NCBI GenBank assembly: GCA_964489085.1
Contig: CAZAXO010000002.1
Location: 1 to 42,739 of the forward strand
DNA length: 42,739 bases
From: an uncultured Candidatus Bathyarchaeia archaeon
GTDB taxonomy: Archaea > Thermoproteota > Bathyarchaeia > 40CM-2-53-6 > DTGE01
Reading direction: 5' to 3'
Each line of letters starts with the position of its first letter. Positions within the stretch are counted from its first letter, which is position 1. A program made the translations under genes and the position numbers. The notes under the pieces are model-generated. The model had not been told where the DNA came from and ran no database searches. It saw only the letters and a program-made list of their open reading frames with translations. This document shows, in pieces, positions 13,348 to 42,739 of this stretch.

Positions 13348-14007
13348 CTACCTTGGTTCTTTTTTAATTAATGGAGTATCGTCTTGTATTCTTTCAATTT
13401 TATATACTTGCAGGTCATCTTCTATCGTTTCTTCCGAGTAAACCTTCGTGACTAAAGTCTGGTTTTCCTTTAAAATATTGATCAGCTTGATGTATGCCTT
13501 GCGGCTTACTATGATGAATACGACTCCAATTAAAGTGAAGATCCACCCGAGGAAGTAGAGGTGAACTGATTTTCCAAACAACATCATCACTGGCCAAGGG
13601 TTAAGGAGATCGTATACTGCGAAGGCTAAGCCAAACATGAGCAGATAGTACTGAAACACTATGTGGCCATCCATCGTGTTTCTCTCTTCCTCTAATCCAT
13701 GTAATTCATGAAGCTTTTTTCGCCAGACTCTCCCGAACTCTATTAATTCATGCGGCTCTTCTCCATCCAACATCCTTTCTTTGAGTAGCTCTTCCATCTC
13801 CTTATTTATCTGCATCATCTTCTTTTTTACCGCATCGATCGTAAACCTATATCTTTCATCGAACTCGTTGTAAAAAGAGCGGAACATGAAATAATTAAGC
13901 AGGCATACGATGCAAACTGTGGCCATTAAAGCATAGACCTGTATCAATTCAAGAAAAATAATCTTTATGGTAAAAAAATAGTTTGTAGGTAGAAGATATC
14001 TATTCAT
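13348..14007 (-). CDS. Hypothetical membrane protein (TM - charged helical segment - 2 TM)
   Basis: 219-aa ORF with hydrophobic segments around residues 15-45 and 120-170 and a charged helical middle ('KEMEELLKERMLDGEEPHELIEF'). The start is uncertain. Confidence 0.6.
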   Translation of the reverse strand: MNRYLLPTNYFFTIKIIFLELIQVYALMATVCIVCLLNYFMFRSFYNEFDERYRFTIDAVKKKMMQINKEMEELLKERMLDGEEPHELIEFGRVWRKKLHELHGLEEERNTMDGHIVFQYYLLMFGLAFAVYDLLNPWPVMMLFGKSVHLYFLGWIFTLIGVVFIIVSRKAYIKLINILKENQTLVTKVYSEETIEDDLQVYKIERIQDDTPLIKKEPR

Positions 14008-14231
14008 TACACTTTTTATCAGTTCTGGCTTAACAAAGATATTAAAAATGTGGGAATGTTAAACTATGGCTAATGACTAAGACATTTTTTCTAAATGGAA
14101 TAAAATGTTTTTCTCATTGACGAGAATAACCTCAAAGATAATTTATAGATACTTTAATACCTATATGTAAGCTATAAATGCATGTTCATTCACTATCTGA
14201 TTAAATTGCTTTTAATATTTGTGCATGTAAT

Positions 14232-15635
14232 TTAATAACGACAAATAGTATTAGCAACATCTAGAAGTATTGTAACTAATGGTTTTAAGGGACCTAGAAA
14301 GCCGGATATAGAGCTTAATTCCCTAAGGTCGTTCTTCACTAATCCTCCTGTTAAAAGTATAAGAATGCAATACAAGAGGAAAAAAATTGGGAGAGTAATC
14401 AATATAGTATAGATACTATTTTTTTGGAGAAGATAGACAGGGACATAGCTTACTAGTGTCGCTATACTTGCAGAGATATATATTGAAAATGACGACTTTG
14501 TATCAAAGCCAATGTCGAGATTCTTCTTGATCCAATAGAGTCCGTAAATTAACCCCAATCTAGGAGCTATGATCATCGTTGTCAACATACCCAAAATTCC
14601 ATATTGGGGTATGAGCCACAGACTTAATGGAACCCCAAATATAATAGAGATCAGTTGCATCCTTAAAGTTACTTGTGTCTCGCCGATACCATTCAGAAGG
14701 CTACCAGCAGTAAGACTACCAATTCCTTGGAAGAGGAACATAACAAGATAAAATTTCATGTAAAGGGATGTATAATCAAAGCCAACAGGATATATTATTT
14801 TAACGATCGAGTCTGAGAGCAGGATCAGTGCGAATGTAATAGGGATAGTTAAAATCGAAGTATATTTCACAGCCCTCTGGAATAGAGGCTTCAATGCCTC
14901 TCTACGATTGTTCATCTTTGAGAAAAGTGGAAAAAGTACGGTAGAAAGAGGTATTGTAAATAGATTAACGATGACACCGAAGTTAATTGCCGCGTAATAG
15001 TTGCCAATCTTTTCCAAATCTATGTATAACGTCATTAATACAGAGTAGAGTTGCTGTAAACCACCAACGGCTACTGTCCCCAAGTAGAGGGGAAATCCGT
15101 AAGCTAGGATAAGCTTCAACCCTGATATTATATCATAATCATCACCAGATAACTCTGTCCTAGCGAGGAAAAAGATAATAAAAACTCCGAATACTCCAGA
15201 AATTAAAACGGCAATAGCATTCCCCAATACTGCGCCGAATGGCCCATAACCTAACCAGACAAGGATCGGCGGAGTGAATGATTTAAAGAATGCCCAAATT
15301 AGTTGGTTAACAGCCCTAATGTCCATCCTATCGTATCCTACGAAGACGGCCTGAGCCATCGTAAAAAGCCCTTCACCGAAGACATATAATGACGCTGCCC
15401 TCAAGAGGGAACTTAAATCCGGGTTTTTCAGGAACCCTTCAGCTATCAGGTTCGCATAATAATATAGTAGCGCTGCTGAAAGGGTCATCGAAACTAAGTT
15501 GAATACGAATCCTGCCTCCAACAATTTTCTTACCCTATCTTTTTTTCCCTCATAACGATACTGTGCAATATACTTTGTTAACGCATTATTAACACCAAAA
15601 TCGTTCAATAAGATGGCTATGCTGGCAGGCACCAT
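14232..15635 (-). CDS. Wzx-type oligosaccharide/polysaccharide flippase (MOP superfamily); true 5' end probably upstream (to ~15791)
   Basis: The ORF encodes 12 or more TM helices and 'FGVNNALTKYIAQY', typical of the polysaccharide biosynthesis protein family. The frame stays open to 15848. That extension encodes 'SEGFTEIAQSSARGGFVLFLGQIASYLLSAISTIIIANFLGS', the expected TM1, with no ATG, GTG or TTG. An in-frame CTG at 15791 follows a GGAGA. Confidence 0.88.
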   Translation of the reverse strand: MVPASIAILLNDFGVNNALTKYIAQYRYEGKKDRVRKLLEAGFVFNLVSMTLSAALLYYYANLIAEGFLKNPDLSSLLRAASLYVFGEGLFTMAQAVFVGYDRMDIRAVNQLIWAFFKSFTPPILVWLGYGPFGAVLGNAIAVLISGVFGVFIIFFLARTELSGDDYDIISGLKLILAYGFPLYLGTVAVGGLQQLYSVLMTLYIDLEKIGNYYAAINFGVIVNLFTIPLSTVLFPLFSKMNNRREALKPLFQRAVKYTSILTIPITFALILLSDSIVKIIYPVGFDYTSLYMKFYLVMFLFQGIGSLTAGSLLNGIGETQVTLRMQLISIIFGVPLSLWLIPQYGILGMLTTMIIAPRLGLIYGLYWIKKNLDIGFDTKSSFSIYISASIATLVSYVPVYLLQKNSIYTILITLPIFFLLYCILILLTGGLVKNDLRELSSISGFLGPLKPLVTILLDVANTICRY

Positions 15636-16004: not shown

Positions 16005-16367
16005 ATGCTATCCATTGCTCACCTCAGGGAAGTAAGGAAACTTGCTATAAGGAAACATGTCTGGTATAAGGTCCTTGACGGGTTAGAGAGAGGCATTATC
16101 AATCTAACAATTAAGCTTGTTAATCATGTAAAGAGTCCACGACTTGCTGATACAATAGCTAAGATAATGCTGAATCTTGAACTGGCTCTGAGAAGTGAGT
16201 ATTCCAGGCACTTGGAATCATATGGTTATCATAAAATGAGAATCATCATAGATATCTCAATAAAGCTTGGATACCAAGAGGCTTCGAGTTGGGCAAGCGA
16301 AGCCTTCGCGCGGTTATTAACACTTAACAACATGTACAACGCTGTGAGATGGAGGCAGCTCAACTAG
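16005..16367 (+). CDS. Hypothetical all-helical 120-aa protein
   Basis: The ORF lies in an otherwise empty gap. Its composition is helix-rich and no family was recognised. Confidence 0.45.
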   Translation: MLSIAHLREVRKLAIRKHVWYKVLDGLERGIINLTIKLVNHVKSPRLADTIAKIMLNLELALRSEYSRHLESYGYHKMRIIIDISIKLGYQEASSWASEAFARLLTLNNMYNAVRWRQLN

Positions 16368-16591: not shown

Positions 16592-17344
16592 ATGGGTGAA
16601 CCTGAAATAATAGAATTTGATTTCAACGTTCTTTTCTTTAAAAATAAAGTAATCCATTATAGCGACACAATTTTTAATATTGATGGTTACAGCTCCATTT
16701 CTTTTAGGGCAGTTAAAAATAAAATTGATGCTCCGTCGTTTAGCTGTAATAAAGAAATTTGTTATATTATAGATTTGACACAAAGCTTAGAAGAAATTTG
16801 GAATAACATGAATAGAAACGCTCATAGAAATATTAAAAAAGCAGAAAAAGAAGGCATTAATATCGAATTTAATAAAGGATATCAAGAATTTTACAAGATG
16901 TACGAAGATCACTTAAAATCTAAGAAACATTTAAAATGGTACAACATACATAAACTAGATGAAATCAAAAAACATGGAACCCTAGTTATTGCTAAATATG
17001 GAAATGATATAATCTCAGGAAGCGTTTTTTTAGAAGATGAAAATAATATTATATATTGGATCACTGCATCTTATAGATACTCACCAAAGAAAATTATAAG
17101 ACAATTATCAGGAAACGCAACCTATTTAATCCATTGGGAAATAATAAAATATGCTAAATTAAAGGATATAAAAGAATACAATTTAGGTCCTTGCGCATAT
17201 GATGATAGAGTGAATAAAAAATTACAACAGTTTAAAAAAAGTTTAGGAAGCGAACCACATACATACTATAAATATTGTAAAGATTATAATTTTGTATATA
17301 AATTAATGCGAAAAAGTTATCAAAAATTGACAGGATTATTCTAA
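16592..17344 (+). CDS. FemAB/BioF2-like (GNAT-fold) transferase, short form
   Basis: 'DLTQSLEEIWNNMNRNAHRNIKKAEKEGINIEF...FYKMYEDHLKSKK' is the signature middle region of Fem-type / Acetyltransf_6-like proteins. It is similar to 25147..26154. Confidence 0.7.
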   Translation: MGEPEIIEFDFNVLFFKNKVIHYSDTIFNIDGYSSISFRAVKNKIDAPSFSCNKEICYIIDLTQSLEEIWNNMNRNAHRNIKKAEKEGINIEFNKGYQEFYKMYEDHLKSKKHLKWYNIHKLDEIKKHGTLVIAKYGNDIISGSVFLEDENNIIYWITASYRYSPKKIIRQLSGNATYLIHWEIIKYAKLKDIKEYNLGPCAYDDRVNKKLQQFKKSLGSEPHTYYKYCKDYNFVYKLMRKSYQKLTGLF

Positions 17345-17397
17345 ATGTATAAAACTAAAAAAATCATATCAACGAACTACATACTCTGAGGAATTAA

Positions 17398-18279
17398 ATG
17401 TATAAAGATCACAGAGTAGCGGTGGTAGTACCCGCCTACAACGAGGAAGAGCTAATCGCTTTTACTCTAGAAACTATACCCGATTATGTTGATTATATAA
17501 TTGTTATAAACGACGCTTCAATTGATAATACGTACTCAATAATTAAAGAACATCAACAGAGAGATCCGAGGATTTTTTTAATTAATCATATAGATAATCA
17601 AGGAGTGGGGGGGGCCATTATAAGTGGATTTAAGAAAAGTATGGAATATGATGCCGATATTACATCTGTAATGGCTGGTGATAATCAGATGGATCCTGAC
17701 TATCTGTCTGCACTCATTGAGCCCATTATTGATAAAAAAGCAGATTTCACAAAAGGTAATCGTTTAGCTATGGGTTATTGGGAAGGTATGAGTCTTTGGC
17801 GGCTTTTTGGTAACATCGTTTTAAATTATTTAACTAAAATTACATCGGGTTACTGGAGGATCGAGGACCCACAAAATGGTTATGTAGCTATATCAAAAAG
17901 AGCACTGAGCGTTCTCCCTTTAGATGATTTATCTAAAGGCTATAATTTTGAAAACGACATGTTAATAAAAAGTAATATTAAAAACATTAGTGTTCTTAAC
18001 GTTAAAATTCCTGCAAAATATGGAAAAGAAAAATCGAAAATAAAATATATGAACTTTATTTACAACACTATTTACTTTTTATTTATTTCTTTCATAAATA
18101 GGATATATTTAAAATATATTAAGAACTTAAAACTTATAGGATTGTTATTTGTTTCTTCCCTTATTTTAATTGTTTTAGGATTTAATAATATTATCTTAAA
18201 TAACAATTTTTTTTTACTCGGAGTATTATTATTTATATTTTCTCTCTTTTGTGATGGACTAAGTGACTATAGAAAATGA
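17398..18279 (+). CDS. Family 2 glycosyltransferase (Dpm1/DPG-synthase-like) with C-terminal TM helices
   Basis: 'VAVVVPAYNEEELI', 'VINDASIDNT', 'NQGVGGAI' and 'AGDNQMDP' are GT2 DxD-region motifs. The C-terminus is hydrophobic. Confidence 0.9.
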   Translation: MYKDHRVAVVVPAYNEEELIAFTLETIPDYVDYIIVINDASIDNTYSIIKEHQQRDPRIFLINHIDNQGVGGAIISGFKKSMEYDADITSVMAGDNQMDPDYLSALIEPIIDKKADFTKGNRLAMGYWEGMSLWRLFGNIVLNYLTKITSGYWRIEDPQNGYVAISKRALSVLPLDDLSKGYNFENDMLIKSNIKNISVLNVKIPAKYGKEKSKIKYMNFIYNTIYFLFISFINRIYLKYIKNLKLIGLLFVSSLILIVLGFNNIILNNNFFLLGVLLFIFSLFCDGLSDYRK

Positions 18280-19331
18280 AAGTAGCTTTTATTATAAACA
18301 CGCCATCTCAAGTACATTTTTATAAAAACATTATTTACGATCTTGAAAAGAAAGGTCATAAAGTATTGTTATTAGCTAGAAATTATGGTGAAACATATCA
18401 ATTATTGAAAGAATTAGATTTATCTTTTACATTTTATAATAAATATAATTTAAACGCATCATCAAAAATGATCTTCATGCCAATAGATATTTACAATATT
18501 GTTAAAAAACTTAAGTATTTTAAACCTGATATTATATCCGGTTTTGGAATCGATTCAGCCTTATCTTCTTTTTTCCTTAAAGCTAAATCCATAATCTTTA
18601 CAGATTCTGAGCCTACCATAAGTATTTTTCAAGAAATTCAATATATTTTTTTAATATATTTAAGTAATATAATTATAACTCCTGAATGTTACAAAAGAGA
18701 TCTAGGTAAAAATCACATCAGAGTAAATAGTTTTAAAGAATTAGCATATCTGCATCCAAAATATTATAAGCCAAGTAAAAAGGTATTAAATATATTAAAT
18801 TTATCTCAAAATGAAAAATATGTAATAATTAGATTCAATAAATTCGATGCCTTACATGACATTTCTAAAAGAGGGTTTTCAACACGTGATAAGATTGATT
18901 TGGTAAAAAGGATCAGTTCAATAACTAAAGTATTTGTTTCTTTTGAAGGGATTTGTCCTGATGAATTAGTTAAATATCGATTAAATATACCAAATAGGTA
19001 TATTCATGATTTATTATATTATTCTTATCTTTTCATCGCAGATACAGGAACAATGGTTACAGAAGCTGCTATTTTAGGGACTCCGGCCATTATATTTCAT
19101 CCAGCTTTAAGAAATTTTGGTAACTTTGAGGAACTAGAAAAAAAATACGAAATGATCTGGGGGTATGAAAAAAATCCAGAATTAATTGTAATAAAAGCTA
19201 TGTCTTTAGTTCGATCCTCGAGTTTAAAACAAGAATGGAAAATTAAACGTGATGTGCTGATTAATGATAAAATTGATATAACTAAATATTTTATCCAGCT
19301 TTTTGAAAATATTGGTAATAGCTTAAAGTAA
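18276..19331 (+). CDS. DUF354 family protein (archaeal GT-B/epimerase-like fold)
   Basis: The N-terminus 'MKVAFIINTPSQVHFYKNIIYDLEKKGHKVLLLARNYGETYQLL' matches my memory of the DUF354 consensus, and the length (~350 aa) fits. The start overlaps the GT2 stop (ATGA). Confidence 0.75.
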   Translation: MKVAFIINTPSQVHFYKNIIYDLEKKGHKVLLLARNYGETYQLLKELDLSFTFYNKYNLNASSKMIFMPIDIYNIVKKLKYFKPDIISGFGIDSALSSFFLKAKSIIFTDSEPTISIFQEIQYIFLIYLSNIIITPECYKRDLGKNHIRVNSFKELAYLHPKYYKPSKKVLNILNLSQNEKYVIIRFNKFDALHDISKRGFSTRDKIDLVKRISSITKVFVSFEGICPDELVKYRLNIPNRYIHDLLYYSYLFIADTGTMVTEAAILGTPAIIFHPALRNFGNFEELEKKYEMIWGYEKNPELIVIKAMSLVRSSSLKQEWKIKRDVLINDKIDITKYFIQLFENIGNSLK

Positions 19332-19422: not shown

Positions 19423-20463
19423 ATGAAGGAATATTTAAAAAGTTATGATGATGCTTGGAATTGTTATTCTTTAGAATCTGAGTATAACACAAATATTGGT
19501 GCGCGTGCGCAACGAGAGTTAATAAAAGAGCCAATCGTCTCGTCTTATTTAATTAAAAACGGATACGATCCAAAATATCCTGAAGATAAATCCTTTGTTA
19601 TCTGCTTAACTCATGACATTGATGAAATTTATACACCAATTATTCACAGAGCTCATTCGATCACATCTCTAGTCACATCTGCTAATATAGATAATCTAAG
19701 AGACGCCTTCAGAGGGCTTTTAGACAAAAAGAAAAGCAAATATCAAGACTTTGGGGAAATTATGACCTTAGAAGAGAAATATAATGCGAGATCAACATTT
19801 TTCTTTCTTGCCTCAAAAAATGATCCTTTCAGATTCAGGTACGACATCGAAGACATATGTAACGAACTTGGAAAAATAATAGATAGAGGATTCGAAATCG
19901 GGCTGCATGGAGGATATTTCTCTTATGATGACTTCAAGGCTTTATCCGAAGAGAAAACAATATTAGAGAAAATTATAGGCGTCGATGCTGAAGGCTATAG
20001 AAGTCATTACTTAAACTTGCATATTCCTATTACATGGCAACATTTGTCTAAACTTGGATTCAAATATGATACAACTCTCGGATATCGAAGAGGATCAGGC
20101 TTCATAAATGGGATGTGTCACCCATTCCATCCATACATCAAAGAGTATGACGAAGAACTGGATTTATTAGAATTGCCACTTATCGTCATGGATGCTGCAT
20201 ACCCTACCTTGGGATTCACAGTGAGTAAGTATTGGGGAGAAATATTGCGTATAATTGATGTTGTTGAGAGAAACCATGGGGTACTTACGATCAATTGGCA
20301 TAACGACTCCTTGCTTTCCACCCGTAAATCTGAACATAGAAAAATGTATGAAAAAATATTAACAGAGGGGGAAAAGAGAGGAGCTTGGTTATCGAACTGT
20401 CATGAAATATGCGAGTGGTGGGGTAGCAACTCAAAACAGTTTGAGAGCGAGATGGATTTATAG
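19423..20463 (+). CDS. Polysaccharide deacetylase-like protein (cytoplasmic, NodB-related)
   Basis: 'FVICLTHDIDEIY', 'RSTFFFLAS' and 'GFEIGLHGGY' follow the order Asp motif, ATFF strand, His motif. No signal peptide is present. Confidence 0.75.
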   Translation: MKEYLKSYDDAWNCYSLESEYNTNIGARAQRELIKEPIVSSYLIKNGYDPKYPEDKSFVICLTHDIDEIYTPIIHRAHSITSLVTSANIDNLRDAFRGLLDKKKSKYQDFGEIMTLEEKYNARSTFFFLASKNDPFRFRYDIEDICNELGKIIDRGFEIGLHGGYFSYDDFKALSEEKTILEKIIGVDAEGYRSHYLNLHIPITWQHLSKLGFKYDTTLGYRRGSGFINGMCHPFHPYIKEYDEELDLLELPLIVMDAAYPTLGFTVSKYWGEILRIIDVVERNHGVLTINWHNDSLLSTRKSEHRKMYEKILTEGEKRGAWLSNCHEICEWWGSNSKQFESEMDL

Positions 20464-22316: not shown

Positions 22317-22328
22317 AAGATTAGAAAA

Positions 22329-23792: not shown

Positions 23793-24027
23793 TTCAAAAA
23801 TAAGTTACATCATATCTTCTGTTGCCATTTTCATAGTTATTTCAATGTGGTTATACATGATTAAGGAAGAAAGAATTGGAGTTTATACTCTTGTTTTATT
23901 AATTAGTGTTATATTATCAGGTTATATCGTGGACTTTAAAAGTAGATATCGAATTTTAATAGATTTCATCGCAATTTTATGTTTTTTATTTCTCGTAGGA
24001 TTAGAGGTACTAGGAATTGTATTGTAG
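23773..24027 (+). CDS. Small membrane protein (3 TM), last gene of the 20529-24027 overlapping operon
   Basis: 84 aa and very hydrophobic. It overlaps the upstream gene by 20 nt. Confidence 0.5.
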   Translation: MFAMKIDSKISYIISSVAIFIVISMWLYMIKEERIGVYTLVLLISVILSGYIVDFKSRYRILIDFIAILCFLFLVGLEVLGIVL

Positions 24028-26154: not shown

Positions 26155-26174
26155 AGATCCGTGTGACAAGTTAG

Positions 26175-34900: not shown

Positions 34901-35112
34901 TAAATGGTATTAGTTGTTCCAGTTGGGTAATCCTGATCATAAACCGTCACCCATTCGTCAGGGGGTGAATCGGTTATTATAGATCCATTTGAGAAAATGA
35001 TTATAAAATCTGATAGTATCGACTTCGCTAGAGGTGCAAAGATCAAAGAACTCAAGAGGACAAGAAGAATGATGACAAATATCTTTAATGTACACTCACG
35101 CTTTTTCTTCAT
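31975..35112 (-). CDS. Secreted tri-modular protein: divergent NodB-like domain + InlB B-repeat-like domain + right-handed parallel beta-helix (pectate-lyase-like)
   Basis: It has a signal peptide 'MKKKRECTLKIFVIILLVLLSSLIFAPLA'. Residues ~50-480 are paralogous to 20529..22316. 'YTLSVNTVGQGSVTRIP....Y..GS.V.L.A.PASGWTFSDWSGDVSG..NP..I.M..DKTVIATF' is the B-repeat. The C-terminal ~450 aa carry repeated 'I.I..C.F', 'N.I.' and 'G(I/V)' beta-helix rungs ('ITIEGIRFLN','IRITNCQFDG','VVIEYCEFYNC','IQILDNTISG'). Confidence 0.85.
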   Translation of the reverse strand: MKKKRECTLKIFVIILLVLLSSLIFAPLAKSILSDFIIIFSNGSIITDSPPDEWVTVYDQDYPTGTTNTIYGLVPTVKSRFIVDVGWDSSGGYLGVGGVRFRLSGTYILGIHRSGTVFSWNMGTNRAIITIDTDSSLGIANISAGTFTDDLPYYEPAYITDRSANIFTPMTLGVSSAGGVATIYHVTQQVNAPGLVSVIGSTQYQAYGYDGPKARSGVEAGMNEIRAAGMNGTIFADVDYILDQSYLSYLNGLVDDGWEVGIHFTDYALGDGTTYTWEEEQAIMTNEYNSITSSFGGRPPLSWCILGRGRLDDPMKEQWVYDNLNMFLRMWRVYPQVNVGSHDIIDDNIDYWMGAANAGVATIPIYVHTTEVSPAPSGSDIDAVLFDQWLAAIISNDVKLTGYQNWYMINSNQLDAVPTSTIGSGYTDIEVDTNGYNAIVLVKIQESTVISVTRVSNGLPVEHWASPEGYIIFEAKDSETYKVTTTETPPSGYTLSVNTVGQGSVTRIPDQVSYDSGSMVQLFASPASGWTFSDWSGDVSGSTNPVSIIMDSDKTVIATFSQSTYSDIHTVQLLGLNSYLTTYADGTTMSSSTAYEAIQTNALDSSKVEYGDTILIKSGIYPLTSGLTGRSGINLKGEAGTVLDVSNLPVSSTIMYTAGQTLVTVQPASTLNKGQTTVTTATNLGAIIDDLIFIWSTDVWHDNSPGLKQGEIRRVVGINGNTLTLEAPLEDTYLQSTTSVSLVEPVQDITIEGIRFLNTINAWDTYPSVQQKKFDGLRFIYGDNIRITNCQFDGIESKAIRFDSVINSRIDHNIFEKATLDGAGYGVDIIYACQNVVIEYCEFYNCRHAMVAADSSTMSGVPRHITILQCYSEDSQYWISSSGIWGVQNQYDCHPVGEFIDFLYNEATGKGYGISHMGYSGRIFGNNFHDLDIYGIRVGTYYVTGVTYYQDEIIVQKNTIADAAAYGIWLGGSGRRATNIQILDNTISGCPTTGITLDNTRDSLINNNYIVGSAVGVRLDSTTENNQGSGNSGPIVDEGVNNNVT

Positions 35113-35408: not shown

Positions 35409-36491
35409 TTAAAAATAATTTAATTGCACTCTATCAGAGTTAATCTTATCAAAAAATTCATCAATAAGTTGAGGGTTACATGCTTTATAGTAAAATAATG
35501 TATTCCTCCACATTGAAGCATCTATGAAATAATGACTCAAAGCTAACTTTTGGTATGGATGATTTTTTGTTACAGGATAATAGATAACATCTACATTATT
35601 TTCATCAAAATATTTACATGCATCTTCTATAAGTAAATCTGCGACATCAAGCCTATCTGGTATTACAAGTAATGCCCTTATGTCTCCTTCTACATAACCG
35701 TTACTTACTAAGATGGAAAGAATACTGAACCCGATAATTTCATTGTCTAGAATCGCCATTTTTATTTGACTATGTCTACCTGGCCTATCTTTTTTCCAAT
35801 TTAAGTAATCAATTTTCTTTTCAACAATGTAATCGAACCCTTTTTTGGCTTTTTCCCAAAAAGCATCTATACGATAATCAAACTCGTTTGCCTTAACTAT
35901 TGAAAAGTCAACAGATTTTACTGACTTTGATTTTAATATGTTTCTTATCTTATTAAGTCCAATCATTCCTCTTATTCCAATGTTCATGATTAAACTATTT
36001 TTTTGGTTTCTACTAAGGAACTTTTTAATATTTTTTACTTTTATCATGTGTGAGATAAAGAAAGGTAGTTGTTTAAAACCGTCTTTCATTTCATATTTTG
36101 ATATAATTGGATTCTCCGTAGCGAAATAACGGTAATCTATTCTATTTTTTATTTCGTATTCTTTCATAATTTTTCTAATATGTGCATATATGCCTCGACC
36201 TCTATATCCACTCGAAACAGCACCATCATCAGCATAAGAACATAAGAATATGGAGTCACCGAGCTTCATAGACAGTATAATTAAGTGTACAACACCAACT
36301 ATTTCATCTGCATCTGAACAAACAACAATAAACGATTTAAGAGGAGAGTTAAGATACTTCCATTTCCAATTATCAATAGCTGATGGTAAACGCCTCCATT
36401 TCAAGAAGTTATTCTTTAATAGATTAACTATTTTTTCTTCATCCCCTGGAGAATAAACCCTAAAAGTTAAATCGTTGGGCAAGATGAGCAT
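35409..36491 (-). CDS. Two-domain GNAT-family acyltransferase (paralogue 2 of 3)
   Basis: 'YSPGDEEKIVNLLKNNFLKW......IDNWKWKYLNSPLK' and 'DDGAVSSGYRGRGIY', with a second half 'IIGFSILSILVSNGYVEGDIRALLV'. Confidence 0.8.
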   Translation of the reverse strand: MLILPNDLTFRVYSPGDEEKIVNLLKNNFLKWRRLPSAIDNWKWKYLNSPLKSFIVVCSDADEIVGVVHLIILSMKLGDSIFLCSYADDGAVSSGYRGRGIYAHIRKIMKEYEIKNRIDYRYFATENPIISKYEMKDGFKQLPFFISHMIKVKNIKKFLSRNQKNSLIMNIGIRGMIGLNKIRNILKSKSVKSVDFSIVKANEFDYRIDAFWEKAKKGFDYIVEKKIDYLNWKKDRPGRHSQIKMAILDNEIIGFSILSILVSNGYVEGDIRALLVIPDRLDVADLLIEDACKYFDENNVDVIYYPVTKNHPYQKLALSHYFIDASMWRNTLFYYKACNPQLIDEFFDKINSDRVQLNYF

Positions 36492-36997: not shown

Positions 36998-38092
36998 TCA
37001 TAAGGTTGTGGAATAGTTGAAGTATACTTGGCTCGGTACAGTTTTTTTTAGAAACGGGATCTCGCTTGGAGCGTTTCCTTGCCAATTAACGCTGTAATCG
37101 AACGAGACGTTTGGTCTTGATTGCGAGTTTAGGAACCCATGTCTCCTGGAAAGCTCCTGATATGGGTGACCCTCAACAAGTTGATAATATACGGTGTTTA
37201 TATCTAGGTCATTCAAACACTTACAGACATGATTCATGAGAGCGTCAGCCACATCAAGCCTATCCCTCACAGCAAGCAGATCCACGATCTGACCTTCAGA
37301 AAACCCTTGCTTATACTCTACAACCGTATAACCAAGTATCTCTTCCCCACACATCGCTTGGAATATTAAGTGGCTGCCCCGGTCGTTGTCCGTGAACCTC
37401 CAATTCAGATACTCGGACCTCTTCTCGAGTATGAAGTTGTAATCATCCTTTATTTTATCCCAGAATGAGTCGATGTTTTTATTAAATTCAGTGATCTGGG
37501 TTATCTGGAACTCGTCAATTTGTTTGATTGGTTGTTTGAACAGGTTTGTTATCTTGTTTAGGTTGCTGAGAAGGATGTATCCAAGTTTTAGGTGTAGCTT
37601 GTTTTCTTTGGGGCGTATGGATAGTAGATGGTCTAAGTCTTTTGTTTTGATCATGCGGGTGACTGTAAAAGGAAGCAATGCTCTTTTTCTTTTCACCCAG
37701 CTCTCAAGAACAATTGGATTCACTGTAGTTGAAAATATGTACTTTGCACTAGAAACAAATTTTTCTTCTTTCAGGGCATGCATTTTGTTATAGATACCCA
37801 TTCCTCTATAGTCAGCATCAACCGCCAAGTCGTCAAAATAGCCTAATGTTGTTATTTCTGGACCTATTTTAGCGTTAAAGATTAGTGAAGGATTGCATCC
37901 GACGATTTTATCATCGGTAACAGCCACTGAGATGATGGACTTTAAAGGTGTGTCGATGTACTTCCATCTCCAGAGCCCCAGAGGATCCTTAAATGCCGCC
38001 CATTTAGGAAACGTCTTCTTTAATAGCTCTACGATGTTTTCGTCGTCGCCTGGCTCATAGAAACGAACACTAACATTAACATTGTTACTCAA
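36998..38092 (-). CDS. Two-domain GNAT-family acyltransferase (paralogue 3 of 3)
   Basis: 'YEPGDDENIVELLKKTFPKW......LGLWRWKYIDTPLK' and 'DDLAVDADYRGMGIY', with a second half 'ILGYTVVEYKQGFSEGQIVDLLAV'. G+C is noticeably higher than in paralogue 1. Confidence 0.8.
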   Translation of the reverse strand: MSNNVNVSVRFYEPGDDENIVELLKKTFPKWAAFKDPLGLWRWKYIDTPLKSIISVAVTDDKIVGCNPSLIFNAKIGPEITTLGYFDDLAVDADYRGMGIYNKMHALKEEKFVSSAKYIFSTTVNPIVLESWVKRKRALLPFTVTRMIKTKDLDHLLSIRPKENKLHLKLGYILLSNLNKITNLFKQPIKQIDEFQITQITEFNKNIDSFWDKIKDDYNFILEKRSEYLNWRFTDNDRGSHLIFQAMCGEEILGYTVVEYKQGFSEGQIVDLLAVRDRLDVADALMNHVCKCLNDLDINTVYYQLVEGHPYQELSRRHGFLNSQSRPNVSFDYSVNWQGNAPSEIPFLKKTVPSQVYFNYSTTL

Positions 38093-38167: not shown

Positions 38168-39007
38168 TTAATCCCATGGAGTTCCTAGGTTATTGTTGGT
38201 ATCGAGATCAGAAGCTAGGCTTATCATTACGCCACGTTCACCGCTCGCGAGGGCGGGATTCACCGACGTAATTATTTCGGCAGTTGTTAGAGGGTAGTTT
38301 ATTACGGAGTGTTCAGCATTGAGAACAGCCGCGGTAGCAGCTCTTAGTAGAATCCGTGCAGCCCCTTCAGCGCCTTTTCCTCCATGGTATCTTAGAGCGT
38401 CAATGAGCGTATCAGTACAAGGAACGTATGCAGCAGCTTCAGAGAACACTGAACATACCCCATCAGATGGGTAATATCCTTGCCATGCATCTGGGTGGTT
38501 CTTCCAGAAACCCGGGGTTGCTCCATAGTAGTCATAAGGCACCTCGTAGATTTCCACCGGAATATGGCAGTAGTTGTTGCTGTATTCGTCATCTATCCAG
38601 TCCACTATCTGGAAAGTAAGCTTGTCTCCTTCGCCCATCTTGTATATGGTGTAAGTATGTCCGGCGTCGCCATTACTGAAAGGCCCCCAGTCGATGTCCT
38701 GACCATTGATCTGTAGGAATGAGTGGCCGTCTGGAGCGGGGAAATGGTTGGTCCACTGCCAGGGGTCTGTGTTTGTAGTATAGTACATGGCGTCTGCCTC
38801 ATACGGATAGCCATAACTAAAGACCTCGTCGGCCACGATCTTGTACTTCTTACCGAACTCGAGTACTACCGATTCGACAGGAGTGCCATCGCTATAGACC
38901 CAGAAGCTATCTACCAGTGTGTCGGCTTTTACCAAGGGTAAGTTTAGTATAAAGGTTGTAGAGAGAAGCATCCCTAGAGCTAGAATCATTGTTGTTTTTT
39001 TCTTCAT
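38168..39007 (-). CDS. Secreted two-domain hypothetical protein (beta-rich N-domain + helical 'GFWKNHPDAW' C-domain)
   Basis: It has a signal peptide 'MKKKTTMILALGMLLSTTFILNLPLVKA'. The C-terminal half reads 'PGFWKNHPDAW...TLIDALRYHGGKG..GAARILLRAATAAVLNA'. Several alternative-frame ORFs in the track overlap it and are taken as artefacts of the high G+C. Confidence 0.75.
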   Translation of the reverse strand: MKKKTTMILALGMLLSTTFILNLPLVKADTLVDSFWVYSDGTPVESVVLEFGKKYKIVADEVFSYGYPYEADAMYYTTNTDPWQWTNHFPAPDGHSFLQINGQDIDWGPFSNGDAGHTYTIYKMGEGDKLTFQIVDWIDDEYSNNYCHIPVEIYEVPYDYYGATPGFWKNHPDAWQGYYPSDGVCSVFSEAAAYVPCTDTLIDALRYHGGKGAEGAARILLRAATAAVLNAEHSVINYPLTTAEIITSVNPALASGERGVMISLASDLDTNNNLGTPWD

Positions 39008-39323: not shown

Positions 39324-40289
39324 ATGAATGTAAAAGTCTCAGTTCTTGGGTGCGGAGTGTGGGGCCGTAACCATGCCAGAGTGTTCAGCGAGTTATCGAA
39401 TACGAAGCTAATCTCTGTCGTGGACCTTAACCAAGCAACGGCAAAAGAAGTCTCTGAAAGATACAAAACCGCTTACGCCCTTGATCCACTAGAAGCCCTA
39501 GCCGACCCCGAAGTCGATGCTGTTACGGTGTGTACCCCGACAGTTACACACATGAAGCTTGCTTTACAGGCAATGGAAGCGGGAAAGCATGTGCTTGTTG
39601 AGAAGCCCATGACTAATACCATCGAGGAAGCTGAGACTCTCATCGAGGCAGCAAAGAAAAACGACGTACACCTAGCAGTGGGTTTTGTTGAACGCTTCAA
39701 CCCAGCCGTTAGAGAGGCTTACAGGTACATCAATGAAGGGAACATTGGAGATATCATCCTTGCTCACACGAAGCGCGTAAGCAGATGGCCTGTCAGGATA
39801 GGGGACGTGGGTGTCATCAAAGACCTTGCTGTACATGACATAGATATCATCAATAAGCTGTTTGATGAAGAGGTTGGAAGCGTATTTGCTAATGCAGGCA
39901 ATATACAGCATAGCTTTGAGGATTATGCTAACATATTCATGAATTTTAAAGGTAAACGAGGGGCGTTTATAGAGACTAACTGGCTGACACCTAGGAAGGT
40001 TCGCAATCTAACTATTACAGGCACAGAGGGAATAATTAACGTGGATTACATAGACCAGACCCTGACCTTGGAAAACGACAAACAGATAACCCAGCCTTTC
40101 ATAGCCAAGGCTGAGCCCCTAAGACTTGAGCTCAAGAGCTTTATAAACTCGATTATAAATGATACCAGCCCTGAGGTCACCGGCTTGGATGGACTGAGAG
40201 CTCTTAAAGTTTGTGAGGCTGCATTAGAGTCCGCGGGCACGGGGAGCATAATGATATTAAACTCTGGTAACTGCGACCATTCAGTCTGA
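39324..40289 (+). CDS. Gfo/Idh/MocA-family NAD-dependent sugar-nucleotide 3-dehydrogenase (WbpB / UDP-GlcNAc(A) 3-dehydrogenase-like)
   Basis: 'VSVLGCGVWGRNHA' is the Rossmann motif, followed by 'VLVEKPM' and 'GFVERFNPA', which are Gfo/Idh/MocA signatures. The gene lies next to a nucleotide-sugar dehydrogenase and a DegT aminotransferase. Confidence 0.8.
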   Translation: MNVKVSVLGCGVWGRNHARVFSELSNTKLISVVDLNQATAKEVSERYKTAYALDPLEALADPEVDAVTVCTPTVTHMKLALQAMEAGKHVLVEKPMTNTIEEAETLIEAAKKNDVHLAVGFVERFNPAVREAYRYINEGNIGDIILAHTKRVSRWPVRIGDVGVIKDLAVHDIDIINKLFDEEVGSVFANAGNIQHSFEDYANIFMNFKGKRGAFIETNWLTPRKVRNLTITGTEGIINVDYIDQTLTLENDKQITQPFIAKAEPLRLELKSFINSIINDTSPEVTGLDGLRALKVCEAALESAGTGSIMILNSGNCDHSV

Positions 40290-40292: not shown

Positions 40293-40299
40293 TAATGGT

Positions 40300-41658
40300 T
40301 TGAAGCTTGTTGTAGTAGGTATGGGTTATGTAGGAATACCCTCGGCGGCGCTGTTCGCTGACGTTGAGGGCATTAACGTTGTGGGCGTCCAGAGAAGATC
40401 AAGACGTTCAGGTTGGAAGATCGATTGCCTCAACCAAGGAAAATGCCCAATAGGTGGTGACGAGCCTGGGCTACCTGAGCTTATAGAGAAGGTAGTAAAG
40501 AATGGCTCTTTCAAGGTCACGGACGACACCAAGGTCTATGGGGAAGCAGATGTAATCTTCATTGACGTACAGACTCCGGTGGATGAAGATCATGTGCCTC
40601 GATATGATTCCCTGAGACAGGTAGCCGAAGAAGTCGGTACGAGTATGAAGAGAGGAGCCATGATAGGAGTGGAGTCTACCGTGGCACCTGGAACCACTCA
40701 GTATATAGTTAAACCTATACTTGAACAAGCTTCAGGGTTGAAGGCGGGAATAGACTTCAACCTAGTCTTCAGCTATGAACGAGTGATGGTCGGTCGCCTT
40801 CTCCACAACCTCCAGTATATGCCCAGAATTGTAGGCGGGTACACATCTGCATGCGCACATAGGGGAGCCGAGCTTTACGCCAAGATAGTAAAAACAGAAG
40901 TCTTTGAAACAGACTGTATGACGGCTGAGATAGCCAAGACTGTTGAGAACGCCTACCGTGATGTAAATATAGCCTTCGCCAATGAGGTCGCTCTCATCTG
41001 TGAGAGCTTAGGCTCAGACGTCCATGAGGTGCGCCGCTACGTCAACAGCCTGCCTTACGACCCAAGTGATCAAGACAAGAACCCCTTCAGGATGATGATG
41101 GCCCCCGGCGCAGGGGTGGGCGGCCACTGCCTCCCCAAGGACAGCTGGCTACTAAAGTACGGCTTAGACCAGCATGGCTCCTACAAGGTAACTCCTCACG
41201 TTATTGTGGACAGCCGAAGAGTAAACGACTATATGCCCACCCATATGAGAGAGCTTGTAACTGAGGCCCTGAAGGAGCGGAACGTCAAGCCTGAAGACGC
41301 ACGTGTAGCCATACTTGGCTACACTTTCCTAGAGAACAGTGACGATACCCGCAACACGCCAGCTCTCCCCCTTTACAGGATGCTCGAGGGAATATGCAGT
41401 GAAGTGGTTGTGCATGACCCCTATGTTAAAGAGGAAGGTGATGTTCACCTCACATCAGACCTAGAAGCAGCCATCAACGACAAGGACTGCATAACAATTG
41501 TAACCAAACACAGGGAATACTTCATGATGGATTTAACTTGGCTCATGGATAATATGAGAACCCCTATAATTGTTGACGGTCGTAACATCTTCAAGCCCGA
41601 GGAAATTAAAGAAGCGGGCTTCACTTATAGAGGAATAGGAATTGGTAAGACCGGCTAG
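40300..41658 (+). CDS. UDP-sugar 6-dehydrogenase family (WecC / WbpA-like UDP-N-acetyl-hexosamine dehydrogenase)
   Basis: 'LVVVGMGYVGIPSA' is the NAD motif. 'GGHCLPKD' holds the catalytic Cys and 'ENAYRDVNIAFANE' also fits. The length is 452 aa, and a TTG start is required to include the first beta-strand. Confidence 0.88.
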   Translation: MKLVVVGMGYVGIPSAALFADVEGINVVGVQRRSRRSGWKIDCLNQGKCPIGGDEPGLPELIEKVVKNGSFKVTDDTKVYGEADVIFIDVQTPVDEDHVPRYDSLRQVAEEVGTSMKRGAMIGVESTVAPGTTQYIVKPILEQASGLKAGIDFNLVFSYERVMVGRLLHNLQYMPRIVGGYTSACAHRGAELYAKIVKTEVFETDCMTAEIAKTVENAYRDVNIAFANEVALICESLGSDVHEVRRYVNSLPYDPSDQDKNPFRMMMAPGAGVGGHCLPKDSWLLKYGLDQHGSYKVTPHVIVDSRRVNDYMPTHMRELVTEALKERNVKPEDARVAILGYTFLENSDDTRNTPALPLYRMLEGICSEVVVHDPYVKEEGDVHLTSDLEAAINDKDCITIVTKHREYFMMDLTWLMDNMRTPIIVDGRNIFKPEEIKEAGFTYRGIGIGKTG

Positions 41659-41762
41659 CCTCAAATTCATAATATATCTATAGAAAATATATGTCGCCCG
41701 AAATTACAACCAATATATCAAAAAGGAAATACCTAAGTAAGGATAGTAAATTGTGATTAACA

Positions 41763-42739
41763 TTGGATAAACTAGCGATTAACGGAGGATCATCGGCCTC
41801 CCCAAACAGGATCAATATAGCCAAACCCATCATAGATGAAGATGTCCTCGATACAATCAAAGTAATCATAGAGACCGGCATGCTGAGACAGGGAAAATAC
41901 GTTAAAGAGTTCGAGGAAAGGTTCACTAAAAAAACCGGCGCCAAATATGCCTACGCTGTCAACAACGGAACAGCAGCGCTACACGTTGCCTATCTTTCAA
42001 CCTTAAACCCCGGCGATGAGGTTATAGTACCAAGCTTCACCTTCCTAGCGACGGCCAGCATGGTCTATTACTCAAGGGCAAAACCAGTTTTTGCAGACAT
42101 AGACCCCGAAACTTATCTAATCGACTTAGAAGACATTAAAAACAAGATCACCAGTAAAACCCGGGCCATCGTACCAGTTCATCTGTTCGGTAACGCCGCA
42201 GATATAAGTGGACTCAAAGACCTCTGCGAGGATCACCACTTGAACCTAATACACGATTCGGCTCAGGCCCATGGAACTAAATACGAAAATAAGGACATCG
42301 GCTCCTTTGATGATCTAAGCTGTTACAGCTTCTACCCCTCCAAGACCTTGACTACAGGCGAGGGGGGAATGGTGACCACTAACGACCAAGATCTGTACAG
42401 GAAAGGCACTCTTCTACGAGCTCATGGCGACGACGCACGCTACCATCACGTGATGATGGGCTTCAATTACCGACTCACAGAGATAGCTGCTGTCTTGGGC
42501 CTAGACCAGATGGATCACTTCGACGAGTTCCTGAAACGCAGGAAACATTGTGGCAAATACCTATACAGGTACATAAACAAAATCGGTGGATTAAGCCCTC
42601 AGAAGACCACACCCAAGGTAGAACACAGCTACAGCTATTTCACTCTCACCATGGATCTAGATCAATATAGTTGCACAAGAGACCAGTTCATTAAAGCCCT
42701 CAACGAGGAGAACATCGACTGTGCCGTCCACTACCCTAC
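41763..42739 (+). CDS. DegT/DnrJ/EryC1/StrS-family PLP aminotransferase (WbpE-like), 3' end cut by window edge
   Basis: This ORF is not in the track because no stop falls within the window. My translation from TTG 41763 reads 'LDKLAINGG....I.KPIIDEDVLDTI..V..TGML.QGKYV.EFEERF....GAKYAYAVNNGTAALH', then 'DEVIVPSFTF.ATA', 'HDSAQAHG' and 'SFYPSKTLTTGEGGM' (PLP Lys). A TGA lies 9 nt upstream in frame. Confidence 0.88.
   Translation, partial: MDKLAINGGSSASPNRINIAKPIIDEDVLDTIKVIIETGMLRQGKYVKEFEERFTKKTGAKYAYAVNNGTAALHVAYLSTLNPGDEVIVPSFTFLATASMVYYSRAKPVFADIDPETYLIDLEDIKNKITSKTRAIVPVHLFGNAADISGLKDLCEDHHLNLIHDSAQAHGTKYENKDIGSFDDLSCYSFYPSKTLTTGEGGMVTTNDQDLYRKGTLLRAHGDDARYHHVMMGFNYRLTEIAAVLGLDQMDHFDEFLKRRKHCGKYLYRYINKIGGLSPQKTTPKVEHSYSYFTLTMDLDQYSCTRDQFIKALNEENIDCAVHYP

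Follow-up and report, generated by a model that had tools for sequence, protein, structure and literature searches.

Gene content of the region

The window, i.e. the whole 42,739-nt stretch of archaeal DNA studied here (contig CAZAXO010000002.1, positions 1 to 42,739), contains to the right of a tRNA-Lys gene a 29-kb region of putative cell-surface glycan genes. Our interest is in a cassette within this region, encoding a family GT2 glycosyltransferase, a DUF354 protein, a CE4 de-N-acetylase, two FemABX-family proteins, a Wzx-type flippase and a polytopic membrane protein of 651 amino acids (aa; TM651), and in a trio of Wbp-type sugar genes at the right end of the window. These genes are listed below with their coordinates, strands and supporting evidence (E-values follow the model names; TM, transmembrane).

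14232..15635, − strand: Wzx/MOP-type flippase (Polysacc_synt_3 7e-23, Polysacc_synt 4.5e-19, MurJ 4e-10)
16592..17344, + strand: Fem250, short (250-aa) FemABX-family protein (FemAB 6e-11, TIGR03019 1e-6)
17398..18279, + strand: GT2 with two C-terminal TM helices, of the polyprenyl-phosphate sugar synthase type (AglJ/PpgS/PgfS-like; Glycos_transf_2 2e-21)
18276..19331, + strand: DUF354 protein, GT-B fold, MurG-like or 2-epimerase-like (DUF354 1.4e-13)
19423..20463, + strand: CE4 de-N-acetylase, VimE-like, predicted cytoplasmic (VimE NF053580 6e-22; PgdA 3qbu 7e-4)
25147..26154, + strand: Fem335, full-length (335-aa) FemABX/VimA-type transferase (Acetyltransf_6 6e-11, FemAB 1e-6, TIGR03019 2.4e-18)
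29812..31767, + strand: TM651, polytopic, at least 11 TM segments and a ~140-aa C-terminal extracytoplasmic domain (hydropathy)
39324..40289, + strand: WbpB-type UDP-GlcNAc(A) 3-dehydrogenase (GFO_IDH_MocA 3e-30, NF040723 7e-106)
40300..41658, + strand: NDP-N-acetylhexosamine 6-dehydrogenase, WbpA- or WecC-like (three UDPG_MGDP_dh domains; TIGR03026 above its cut-off)
41757..42739, + strand: DegT/WbpE-type sugar aminotransferase, cut by the window end (DegT_DnrJ_EryC1 2.4e-104)

A previous interpretation of the window, made from its letters and open reading frames (ORFs) and referred to below as the sequence-only reading, had named all of these genes. Its gene list is essentially correct: the ORF coordinates match and profile searches back almost every item, including the flippase, the GT2 gene whose stop overlaps the DUF354 start through ATGA, the Fem/BioF2-like transferases at 16592 and 25147, the CE4-like deacetylase, the 651-aa polytopic protein and the WbpB/WbpA/WbpE-like trio. 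It had also stated that no WWDYG protein is encoded here, and indeed the motif occurs in none of the six frames of the window.

Enzymes of the cassette and the Wbp-type trio

Among NCBIfam models, the CE4 protein is matched best by VimE, the next model reaching only 5e-4. VimE is the UDP-2,3-diacetamido-2,3-dideoxy-glucuronate deacetylase. The CE4 family profile further matches HpPgdA (PDB 3qbu), and the motifs THDxD, GLHGG, RxHY, NGMCHP and WHN, which carry the Asp/His set, are invariant in 20 diverse members of a family for which a protein database search returned 1116 homologues. Hydropathy analysis found neither a signal peptide nor a TM segment in the protein; de-N-acetylation by this enzyme therefore most likely takes place inside the cell.

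The two Fem-like proteins remain in the FemABX family. TIGR03019, the FemAB-type family matched by Fem335, is also the family to which Porphyromonas gingivalis VimA belongs (PMC7468200). When a profile of 18 Fem335-family members was compared with the PDB, the matches were Staphylococcus aureus FemX (6snr, 1.7e-11), an aminoacyl-tRNA-dependent peptide synthase (9wqw, 1.9e-8), FemA (1.6e-7) and Weissella viridescens FemX (1e-6), all of them aminoacyl-tRNA-dependent transferases. Because every solved homologue uses this donor, aminoacyl-tRNA is, by analogy, the most likely donor of the Fem-like enzymes as well, and the (amino)acylation inside the cell proposed by the sequence-only reading is a reasonable inference. 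That reading had named the reassignment of the Fem-like and GNAT genes to unrelated small-molecule acetyltransferases as an outcome that would count against it; profile and PDB comparisons give no such reassignment for the Fem-like genes, while the three GNAT proteins of the window remain generic and unrelated to the Fem profile. A candidate kinship of these GNATs with a divergent Fem-like family was rejected (hhalign probability 1%).

The trio at the right end comprises enzymes of the WbpA, WbpB and WbpE types (6-dehydrogenase, 3-dehydrogenase and 3-aminotransferase), assigned by family-level Pfam and NCBIfam matches. For the WbpB-type protein the best match is the archaeal UDP-GlcNAc 3-dehydrogenase NF040723, at 354 bits against a cut-off of 450. 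The dehydrogenase at 40300 lies above the cut-off of TIGR03026, and below that of the archaeal UDP-ManNAc dehydrogenase model, which it matches at 1.6e-97.

The GT2 protein, the sole membrane glycosyltransferase (GT) among the Pfam matches of the scanned window ORFs, matches AglJ (TIGR04182) best among NCBIfam models, over its full length, at 5.6e-19 and 69 bits against a cut-off of 325. For DUF354, MurG heads the profile matches in the PDB (E = 0.004), ahead of PglA, sterol glucosyltransferases and UDP-GlcNAc 2-epimerases; a literature search on DUF354 returned nothing relevant. An initiating polyprenyl-phosphate phosphoglycosyl transferase of the WbaP, WecA or AglH type was not found among the Pfam matches of the scanned window ORFs.

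The called start of the flippase gene is an internal Met: about 60 upstream codons (15636–15830, − strand) encode a typical first TM helix of Wzx, …GGFVLFLGQIASYLLSAISTIIIANFLGSYSLGEV…, and back to the preceding stop codon this frame offers none of the usual start codons ATG, GTG and TTG. The gene could use ATT or CTG as a non-canonical start, could be truncated at its 5′ end or could contain a sequencing error.

TM651 and 19 of its homologues match no Pfam or NCBIfam model, and in particular give no match to Wzy_C, EpsG or O-antigen polymerase/ligase models at E ≤ 0.1; note that Wzy families are very divergent, so that this lack of a match is compatible with a polymerase function. The only PDB match is the GT-C arabinofuranosyltransferase AftA (8if8), a weak one that moves from E = 0.27 to 0.017 with a deeper profile, and TM651 resembles AftA in length and in layout (a TM bundle followed by a C-terminal soluble domain). 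Invariant residues of the family are R123, D182, H186, Y207, P211, H214, H323, R466 and D518, with D182 and H186 in the loop after TM5. In Firmicutes and Chloroflexi, single proteins of 1000–1190 aa fuse a Wzx-like N-terminal part to a TM651-like C-terminal part (L030 12022–15192, L011 5963–9538 and L017 12035–15025; L numbers denote the loci retrieved for comparison). Since TM651 is fused to Wzx in these proteins, it would be expected to act on a flipped, lipid-linked substrate, and we regard it as a Wzx-coupled candidate for a GT-C-like transferase or a polymerase.

Conservation of the cassette

The closest homologues, with 62–76% amino-acid identity, are found in metagenome-assembled genomes labeled "Candidatus Hodarchaeales archaeon", and by this comparison the window comes from an Asgard archaeon of that group. 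A block composed of Fem250, CE4, the secreted protein sec595 and four small ORFs is collinear in four genomes at 49–76% identity, with the Fem250 orthologues (~243–256 aa) directly upstream of the CE4 gene and sec595 directly downstream of it. In the relative L002, the order is GT2, WbpB, WbpA, Fem, coiled-coil, Fem fragment, CE4, sec574, four small ORFs, DUF354, TM627, GNAT, coiled-coil, GNAT, and the GT2 gene is preceded by a homologue of the 120-aa protein encoded at 16005. Two further relatives (the P0004 contig and L086) keep Fem~250, CE4, sec~590 and the four small ORFs, with DUF354, TM~630, GNATs, the long Fem and coiled-coil genes nearby in shuffled order. The chromosomal neighbors differ as well, tRNA-Lys in the window and a LysW operon in L002.

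To describe the distribution beyond these relatives, distant genomes were scanned with the CE4 alignment, keeping one genome per species, and families were counted within 10 kb of CE4 by tblastn and by unbiased ORF clustering. The resulting 80 loci are mostly from Methanosarcinales, Methanomicrobiales and Methanocellales, and also include Bathyarchaeota, Altiarchaeum, Methanomethylophilaceae, several Firmicutes (e.g. Lachnoclostridium phytofermentans) and Chloroflexi. DUF354 accompanies CE4 in 71 of the 80, almost always directly upstream and on the same strand. Fem-like genes are present in 54 loci, GT4 in 52, the AglJ-like GT2 in 45 (orthologues of the window protein, 41–58% identical), TM651 homologues of at least 600 aa in 44, Wzx in 43 and a second GT2 in 37. 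The further counts are UDP-sugar dehydrogenase (34/80), epimerase (31/80), hexapeptide acetyltransferases (14 and 12 of 80), WbpB (13/80), DegT (12/80) and DUF1616 (10/80). Where Wbp-type genes do occur they can be tightly linked, with WbpE, WbpB and the dehydrogenase directly upstream of CE4 in L073, L077 and L078, and the order WbpE-WbpB-GT2-CE4 in L066. The order Fem250-GT2-DUF354-CE4 of the window mirrors that of L. phytofermentans, GT2-Fem-DUF354-CE4-Fem-(Wzx-TM651)-DUF1616. Overall, the conserved co-occurrence that the sequence-only reading had named as a check holds both in close relatives and across 80 distant genomes.

Two of these lineages deserve a separate description. Upstream of the cassette in Lachnoclostridium (L030 1241–7055) lie genes for a DegT protein, a PIG-L-family de-N-acetylase, an ATP-grasp protein, a PHP phosphoesterase and a geranylgeranyl-reductase-like flavoprotein; the presence in a bacterium of this last, archaeal-looking lipid-carrier gene hints at an inter-domain transfer of the locus. 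In Methanosarcina loci (L026, L029, L032, L035, L041, L042, L046, L070 and others), DUF354-CE4 is clustered with UDP-sugar dehydrogenase, epimerase, NTP-transferase, GT2, GT4, Fem-like, two Wzx and TM~650 genes. In 13 loci, a "disaggregatase" gene is found less than 10 kb away; disaggregatase-repeat genes are multi-copy in Methanosarcina, and the adjacency may be due to chance. For methanochondroitin, the genes of which were unidentified according to a 2025 review (PMC12369344), a route through a lipid-linked trisaccharide has been proposed, and a set of three glycosyltransferases, a Wzx and a candidate polymerase would be in keeping with it.

Accessory genes and the mosaic structure of the island

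The remaining features of the region are as follows.

12803..12880, + strand: tRNA-Lys (CTT), left landmark (ARAGORN)
13348..14007, − strand: TM219, 219-aa membrane protein with 3 hydrophobic segments (hydropathy; no Pfam match)
16005..16367, + strand: 120-aa conserved hypothetical protein (tblastn, 34% identity to L002 3508–3804; no Pfam match)
20529..22316, + strand: sec595, secreted, with a C-terminal TM anchor; ConA-like lectin, non-canonical NodB/CE4-fold domain and beta-sandwich (AlphaFold2 model, Foldseek)
22329..24027, + strand: four overlapping small membrane-protein ORFs, of 147 aa, DUF1616 C-part (~155–176 aa), DUF1616 N-part (198 aa) and 84 aa (DUF1616 1.2e-9 and 2.6e-5)
24207..24899, + strand: TM-anchored coiled-coil "stalk" protein, paralogue 1 (coiled-coil Pfam matches below cut-off)
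26175..26882, + strand: TM-anchored coiled-coil "stalk" protein, paralogue 2 (51% identical to paralogue 1)
27181..28596, + strand: sec471, 471-aa secreted protein with a poly-Pro tract (no Pfam match; no homologue in L002)
28659..29756, + strand: GNAT paralogue 1 (365 aa), N-terminal GNAT domain with an RGxG acetyl-CoA motif (Acetyltransf_9 6e-9)
31975..35112, − strand: 1045-aa secreted protein; N-half paralogous to sec595, InlB-B-repeat-like domain, right-handed beta-helix (Flg_new_2 5e-14, Beta_helix 4e-15, NosD 8e-10)
35409..36491, − strand: GNAT paralogue 2 (360 aa; Acetyltransf_9 6e-8)
36998..38092, − strand: GNAT paralogue 3 (364 aa; Acetyltransf_1 1e-5; L002 orthologue 62% identical)
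38168..39007, − strand: sec279, 279-aa secreted protein with an N-terminal hydrophobic segment (hydropathy; no Pfam match)

The sequence-only reading had recognized two secreted NodB-like paralogues at 20529 and 31975, and this is borne out: sec595 and the N-half of the 1045-aa protein are 39% identical (BLASTP, E = 4e-110), and the AlphaFold2 model of sec595 (pLDDT 86.9, 41-sequence alignment) shows, by Foldseek, an N-terminal ConA-like lectin/glucanase sandwich, a central NodB/CE4 domain, a C-terminal beta-sandwich and a C-terminal TM anchor. The NodB domain aligns with PdaC (target TM-score 0.69–0.70, root-mean-square deviation 3.5 Å) and with Bc1960 and acetylxylan esterases (TM-scores of 0.63–0.73 overall), and the top five matches of the sec595 profile against the PDB are all NodB proteins. 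Its active site is not canonical, as seen from the hidden Markov model alignment to PdaC and from column counts. Motif 1 reads F-G-[LIFY]-D-G-P, in which the catalytic-base Asp (the canonical TFDD Asp pair) is replaced by a hydrophobic residue, and motif 2 reads G-I-H-[YF]-S-x-x-L, without the second metal-binding His of the canonical H-S/T-x-x-H. The family nevertheless keeps an invariant polar set (D281, D308, E330, H334, R393, H432 and D435), and it may be a deacetylase, another hydrolase or a binding module. A set of 1.8 billion proteins yields no more than 120 representative clusters of this small family, and a metagenome scan for relatives returned two short loci only. The C-terminal half of the 1045-aa protein (31975–33600, − strand) adds an InlB-B-repeat-like domain and a right-handed beta-helix of NosD- or pectate-lyase-like type; judging from these domains, the protein could be a glycan-degrading or glycan-binding surface enzyme. 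The protein at 27181, sec471, had been described as a degenerate member of the same group, and this description did not survive: it has no Pfam match, BLAST gives E = 0.018 on unrelated segments and hhalign a probability of 1%. Relative to the relatives examined, sec471, sec279 and TM219 are genome-specific, and neither the 80 loci nor L002 contain a homologue of TM219.

The two "stalked leucine-zipper" proteins of the sequence-only reading are confirmed as TM-plus-coiled-coil paralogues, both with homologues in L002 and the one at 24207 also with a homologue in L086. Each ends in a ~110-aa C-terminal globular domain matching no family. The placement of the gene at 26175 immediately after a Fem gene is kept in L002, and more generally the coiled-coil genes stand beside Fem or GNAT genes (window 24207–26882; L002 7440–9107 and 19081–19785). 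A chain-length or scaffold role is conceivable.

The three GNAT proteins had been taken as two-domain paralogues of ~360 aa. The paralogy (33–36% identity) and the N-terminal GNAT domain stand, this domain being closest in the PDB to GNA1, the GlcN6P N-acetyltransferase (6e-4); the profile scan detected that domain alone, and the second is hinted at only by PDB 1y7r (E = 0.07).

What had been called a "split DUF1616" (22765–24027) is neither a simple split nor a fresh pseudogene, because an arrangement of four small ORFs is conserved in four related genomes (in addition to the window, L002 12949–14627, the P0004 contig and L086 4073–5799), at 52–62% identity between the window and L002. The DUF1616 signal is shared between two of the ORFs in permuted order, with the C-terminal portion encoded before the N-terminal one. 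Such a pattern points less to decay than to an ancient fission of the gene into subunits whose translation is coupled. An unbroken DUF1616 gene stands immediately after the TM651 homologue in five bacterial loci (L011, L017, L019, L021 and L030).

The secreted lectin-NodB, coiled-coil and GNAT365 families occur in 0–1 of the 80 distant loci; together with the small DUF1616 ORFs they form a Hodarchaeales-specific accessory layer.

The composition of the region varies from gene to gene. Between 16592 and 42739 the per-gene guanine-plus-cytosine (GC) content ranges from 0.235 to 0.496, with low-GC genes (0.235–0.30: Fem250, GT2, DUF354, Fem335, GNAT365 and TM651) interleaved with CE4, sec595 and the coiled-coil genes at ~0.36, and with the Wbp genes and sec279 at 0.47–0.50; three orientation blocks are present. 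With this GC variation and with a gene order that is shuffled from one relative to the next, the island is a mosaic that recombines around a stable core. An integrative element inserted at the tRNA-Lys gene was considered and found no support, a 13-mer scan of the window revealing no further copy of tRNA-Lys 13-mers and no att-like repeat. The tail of a related Hodarchaeales island (L092 3646–6522) encodes a CapK-like adenylate-forming enzyme and a PLP-dependent decarboxylase, both absent from the window, together with a PKD protein; through the first two, the glycan could be decorated with acyl or amine groups by a second route. On the other side, the glycan-related region may reach left of the tRNA, where a canonical Polysacc_deac_1 CE4 gene cut by the window start (1–630) and GlmS (2454–4235) are found. 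YdjM-family membrane-protein ORFs are located at 726–959 and 10063–10512, the first being a 77-aa fragment that matches only the N-terminal part of the profile.

Interpretation and alternatives

Family identities, predicted cytoplasmic or extracytoplasmic locations and conserved linkage are established directly. On this basis, our preferred reading, to which we give about an even chance of being right, is that a widely conserved cassette with a Wbp/Vim-like mechanism forms the core of a variable island for the biosynthesis of a cell-surface glycan. The cassette would consist of the polyprenyl-phosphate-type GT2, DUF354 (GT-B), a cytoplasmic VimE-like CE4, one or two FemABX/VimA-like proteins, Wzx and the ~650-aa polytopic protein, with DUF1616 in some genomes. 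From the family matches, this core most resembles the bacterial Wbp/Vim route, in which an acetyl group on a diamino-uronic sugar is swapped for an amino acid.

The steps may be envisaged as follows. WbpB, the dehydrogenase and DegT, going by their family assignments, would convert UDP-GlcNAc to a UDP-2-acetamido-3-amino uronic sugar. An N-acetyltransferase would then complete the diacetamido sugar; the window has no WbpD of the left-handed beta-helix (LbH) type, and the step would fall to a GNAT or to a gene past the window end. The cytoplasmic CE4 would remove one N-acetyl group, by analogy to VimE, either from the nucleotide sugar, as proposed for VimE, or from a dolichol-linked sugar, as ArnD does with its lipid-linked substrate. 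The Fem-like enzymes, by analogy to VimA, would put a new acyl group on the amine thus exposed, most likely an amino acid delivered by aminoacyl-tRNA. GT2 and DUF354 may build the dolichol-linked unit, which Wzx would flip and TM651 transfer or polymerize on the outer face, as suggested by topology, by the gene fusions and by the weak GT-C match. The final acceptor could be the N-glycans of S-layer or other proteins, through an AglB encoded elsewhere, or a free polymer.

Several observations weigh against this reading. Wbp genes lie within 10 kb of CE4 in only ~15–20% of the 80 loci, against 89% for DUF354, and because of this the common substrate may be a plain N-acetylhexosamine. In the window itself the Wbp trio is 19 kb from CE4, beyond an opposite-strand block, and differs in GC (0.47–0.50 vs 0.26–0.36). 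There is no hexapeptide-repeat protein, hence no WbpD-type LbH 3-N-acetyltransferase, among the Pfam-scanned window ORFs, although the window ends inside the DegT gene and a WbpD gene could lie past it. CE4 scores 78 bits against the equivalog cut-off of 440 for NF053580 and covers profile positions 155–428 only, and Fem335 scores 66 bits against 260 for TIGR03019; with scores so far under the equivalog cut-offs, the VimE/VimA substrate and donor are analogies for the window enzymes and not assignments. DUF354 may be a glycosyltransferase or an epimerase, and the AlphaFold2 model of TM651, made from a 6-sequence multiple alignment, is unusable (pLDDT 41.5), which leaves the AftA match as its only structural guide. 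Finally, the biochemistry of all archaeal members is a prediction from homology.

The sequence-only reading had proposed Wzx/Wzy assembly of an acidic diacetamido-sugar polymer, forming a murein-independent wall or capsule without AglB and partly de-N-acetylated outside the cell by the secreted NodB-like proteins in the manner of PgaB or PelA. The flippase of this model is indeed present, and TM651 is polytopic, conserved beside Wzx and fused to it in bacteria; yet TM651 bears no Wzy, EpsG or O-antigen-ligase signature, its one structural hint being GT-C, and the window lacks an initiating phosphoglycosyl transferase and a chain-length regulator. As for deacetylation outside the cell, the secreted proteins combine a NodB fold with a lectin domain, stand directly downstream of CE4 in four related genomes and keep a strongly conserved polar constellation; against this, their NodB domains are devoid of the catalytic-base Asp and of the second metal His, they are missing from all 80 distant loci that keep the cassette, and the canonical-looking CE4 of the cassette is cytoplasmic, so that this step is unproven. 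Nothing in our analysis shows a wall or capsule polymer, and independence from AglB does not follow from the lack of AglB in the window. Taken as a whole, we hold this model to be improbable. An Arn-like, three-component decoration, in which GT2 loads an N-acetyl amino sugar on dolichol phosphate, CE4 de-N-acetylates it while it is lipid-linked, Fem acylates it and, after flipping, TM651 as a GT-C enzyme like ArnT, AftA or AglS adds this single sugar to an existing surface glycan, lipid or protein, has the following in its favor: a GT2 of the ArnC/AglJ/PpgS type with C-terminal TM helices, a cytoplasmic CE4, a TM651 whose length and layout are those of AftA, an enzyme that uses a polyprenyl-phosphate sugar donor, and DegT and dehydrogenase genes nearby, as in the arn operon. 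We nevertheless consider it unlikely, as the recurrence of further glycosyltransferases (DUF354 in 71 loci, GT4 in 52, a second GT2 in 37) points to a unit of several sugars and not just one, the usual cargo of Wzx-type flippases is an oligosaccharide, and the GT-C assignment of TM651 is based on E = 0.017.

It might also be that there is no single pathway, and that the region is a recombination-prone mosaic of unrelated modules (agl-type N-glycan supply, exopolysaccharide, adhesins) that happen to be co-located. The scattered per-gene GC, the three orientation blocks, the shuffled gene order, the genome-specific sec471, sec279 and TM219, the different tail genes of the related island and its different chromosomal neighbors (tRNA-Lys here, LysW in L002) all speak for such a view. 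What makes it doubtful is that CE4, DUF354, Fem, GT2, TM651 and Wzx co-occur across phyla and domains far above what a random mosaic would give, and that the block from Fem250 to the four small ORFs is collinear in four genomes.

Regarding the acceptor, the WWDYG motif occurs in just 1 of the 80 related loci. In Promethearchaeum syntrophicum, the one Asgard archaeon examined in this respect, glycosylation genes are not clustered near aglB (PMC11284389), so that a role in N-glycosylation is still compatible with the lack of AglB in the window. Cultured Hodarchaeales have N-glycosylated S-layer proteins (bioRxiv 10.1101/2025.02.26.640444). From the sequence alone, N-glycan attachment through an AglB encoded elsewhere and a free polymer could both be the outcome.

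A broader and more speculative proposal, in which we place little confidence, is that DUF354-CE4-Fem-GT2-Wzx-TM651 constitutes an unrecognized, widespread pathway of Asgard archaea, methanogens, Bathyarchaeota and some Firmicutes and Chloroflexi. Its product would be a lipid-linked glycan whose amino sugars first lose N-acetyl groups and then receive amino acids from Fem-like enzymes that depend on tRNA, giving a peptide-decorated, murein-independent envelope glycopolymer; in Hodarchaeales this glycopolymer would be processed or bound by the secreted lectin-NodB-like family, and in Methanosarcina the pathway could be part of the methanochondroitin machinery. No description of the cassette in archaea was found in the searchable literature.

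Eukaryotes have their closest known relatives in the Asgard archaea, Hodarchaeales above all, a group whose surface chemistry has hardly been explored. The gene list leads here to a specific proposal, an N-aminoacylated or re-acylated diamino-uronic or amino sugar made through a VimE/VimA-like pair; to our knowledge, no Wbp/Vim-type amino-acid-swapping route has been characterized in archaea. Should the Fem-like enzymes use aminoacyl-tRNA, this would be, as far as we know, the first tRNA-dependent sugar aminoacylation system described in archaea. Besides Methanosarcina, for which genetic tools are available, Methanolobus and Methanococcoides also carry the cassette. Its genes are candidates for the synthesis of methanochondroitin, and four uncharacterized families (DUF354, the TM651 family, DUF1616 and the lectin-NodB-like secreted family) are defined as cassette members.

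Comparison with known systems

The sequence-only reading held that the enzyme mix could not be mapped to a described pathway. It does map, at the level of families, to the bacterial Wbp/Vim pathway of Porphyromonas gingivalis and Tannerella forsythia, composed of WbpA/B/E/D, VimE and VimA (PMC7468200), and its Wbp part maps also to the N-glycan sugars of Methanococcus (PMC2952790). In the Wbp/Vim pathway, VimE strips the acetyl group from the 2-amine of the Wbp product and VimA puts serine or glycine in its place, yielding the linking sugar of anionic lipopolysaccharide (A-LPS), a 2-N-seryl or 2-N-glycyl 3-N-acetyl-glucuronic acid or amide (PMC7468200). The window shares with it the joint presence of WbpB-type, 6-dehydrogenase and DegT families, of a CE4 that resembles VimE and is predicted to be cytoplasmic and of a FemAB/TIGR03019-like protein, and the physical linkage of these genes in L002, L066, L073, L077 and L078. 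It differs in its archaeal host, which implies a dolichol carrier and has no lipopolysaccharide, type IX secretion system or sortase-like attachment, in matches to VimE and VimA that are at family level only, in the lack of an LbH WbpD in the window, and in having two Fem paralogues instead of one. The cassette also adds DUF354, the polyprenyl-phosphate GT2, TM651 and DUF1616, which are not described for Vim.

A similar pairing occurs in PEP-CTERM/XrtA exopolysaccharide loci, where FemAB-family TIGR03019 and CE4 TIGR03006 are found together. The window proteins match both models (2.4e-18 and 5e-4, respectively), with scores far below the cut-offs. The window has, however, no exosortase or PEP-CTERM system, and the proteobacterial pair itself lacks an assigned function.

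Methanococcus N-glycans contain GlcNAc3NAcA and ManNAcA6Thr (PMC2952790). The archaeal WbpB/WbpA/WbpE-type set and the amino-acid-decorated uronic sugars are thus common ground; in Methanococcus, an amide bond joins the threonine to the C6 carboxyl and not to an amine, and the genes serve AglB-dependent N-glycosylation, whereas AglB is not in the window. The Methanococcus genes, MMP0350–0353, are reportedly WbpABED homologues, from work attributed to Namboori and Graham in 2008 and to Siu and colleagues in 2015, and we know of no CE4/Fem pair in that pathway.

The Arn system, which modifies lipid A with 4-amino-4-deoxy-L-arabinose (L-Ara4N), comprises ArnB, ArnA, ArnC (a GT2), ArnD (a CE4 acting after ArnC), ArnE/F and ArnT (a GT-C). 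Both thus combine a polyprenyl-phosphate GT2 with a cytoplasmic de-N-acylase of family CE4, a flippase and a large polytopic transferase (the last as a candidate, TM651), with DegT and a dehydrogenase nearby. The differences lie in the sugar, in the extra Fem-like and GT-B genes, in a Wzx-type rather than EmrE-like flippase and in TM651, which is not detectably of the ArnT/PMT_2 type. In the agl cluster of Haloferax volcanii, the GT2 AglJ, the Wzx-like flippase AglR, the polytopic Dol-P-mannose transferase AglS and AglB are encoded; the AglJ-like GT2, the Wzx-like flippase and a polytopic candidate for an outer-face transferase recur in the window, which is without AglB or WWDYG, while the Haloferax cluster is without the CE4/Fem pair, and TM651 is matched by no curated model. 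Overall, the logic of the archaeal cassette is that of Wbp/Vim, with similarities to the PEP-CTERM FemAB/deacetylase pairs and to Arn.

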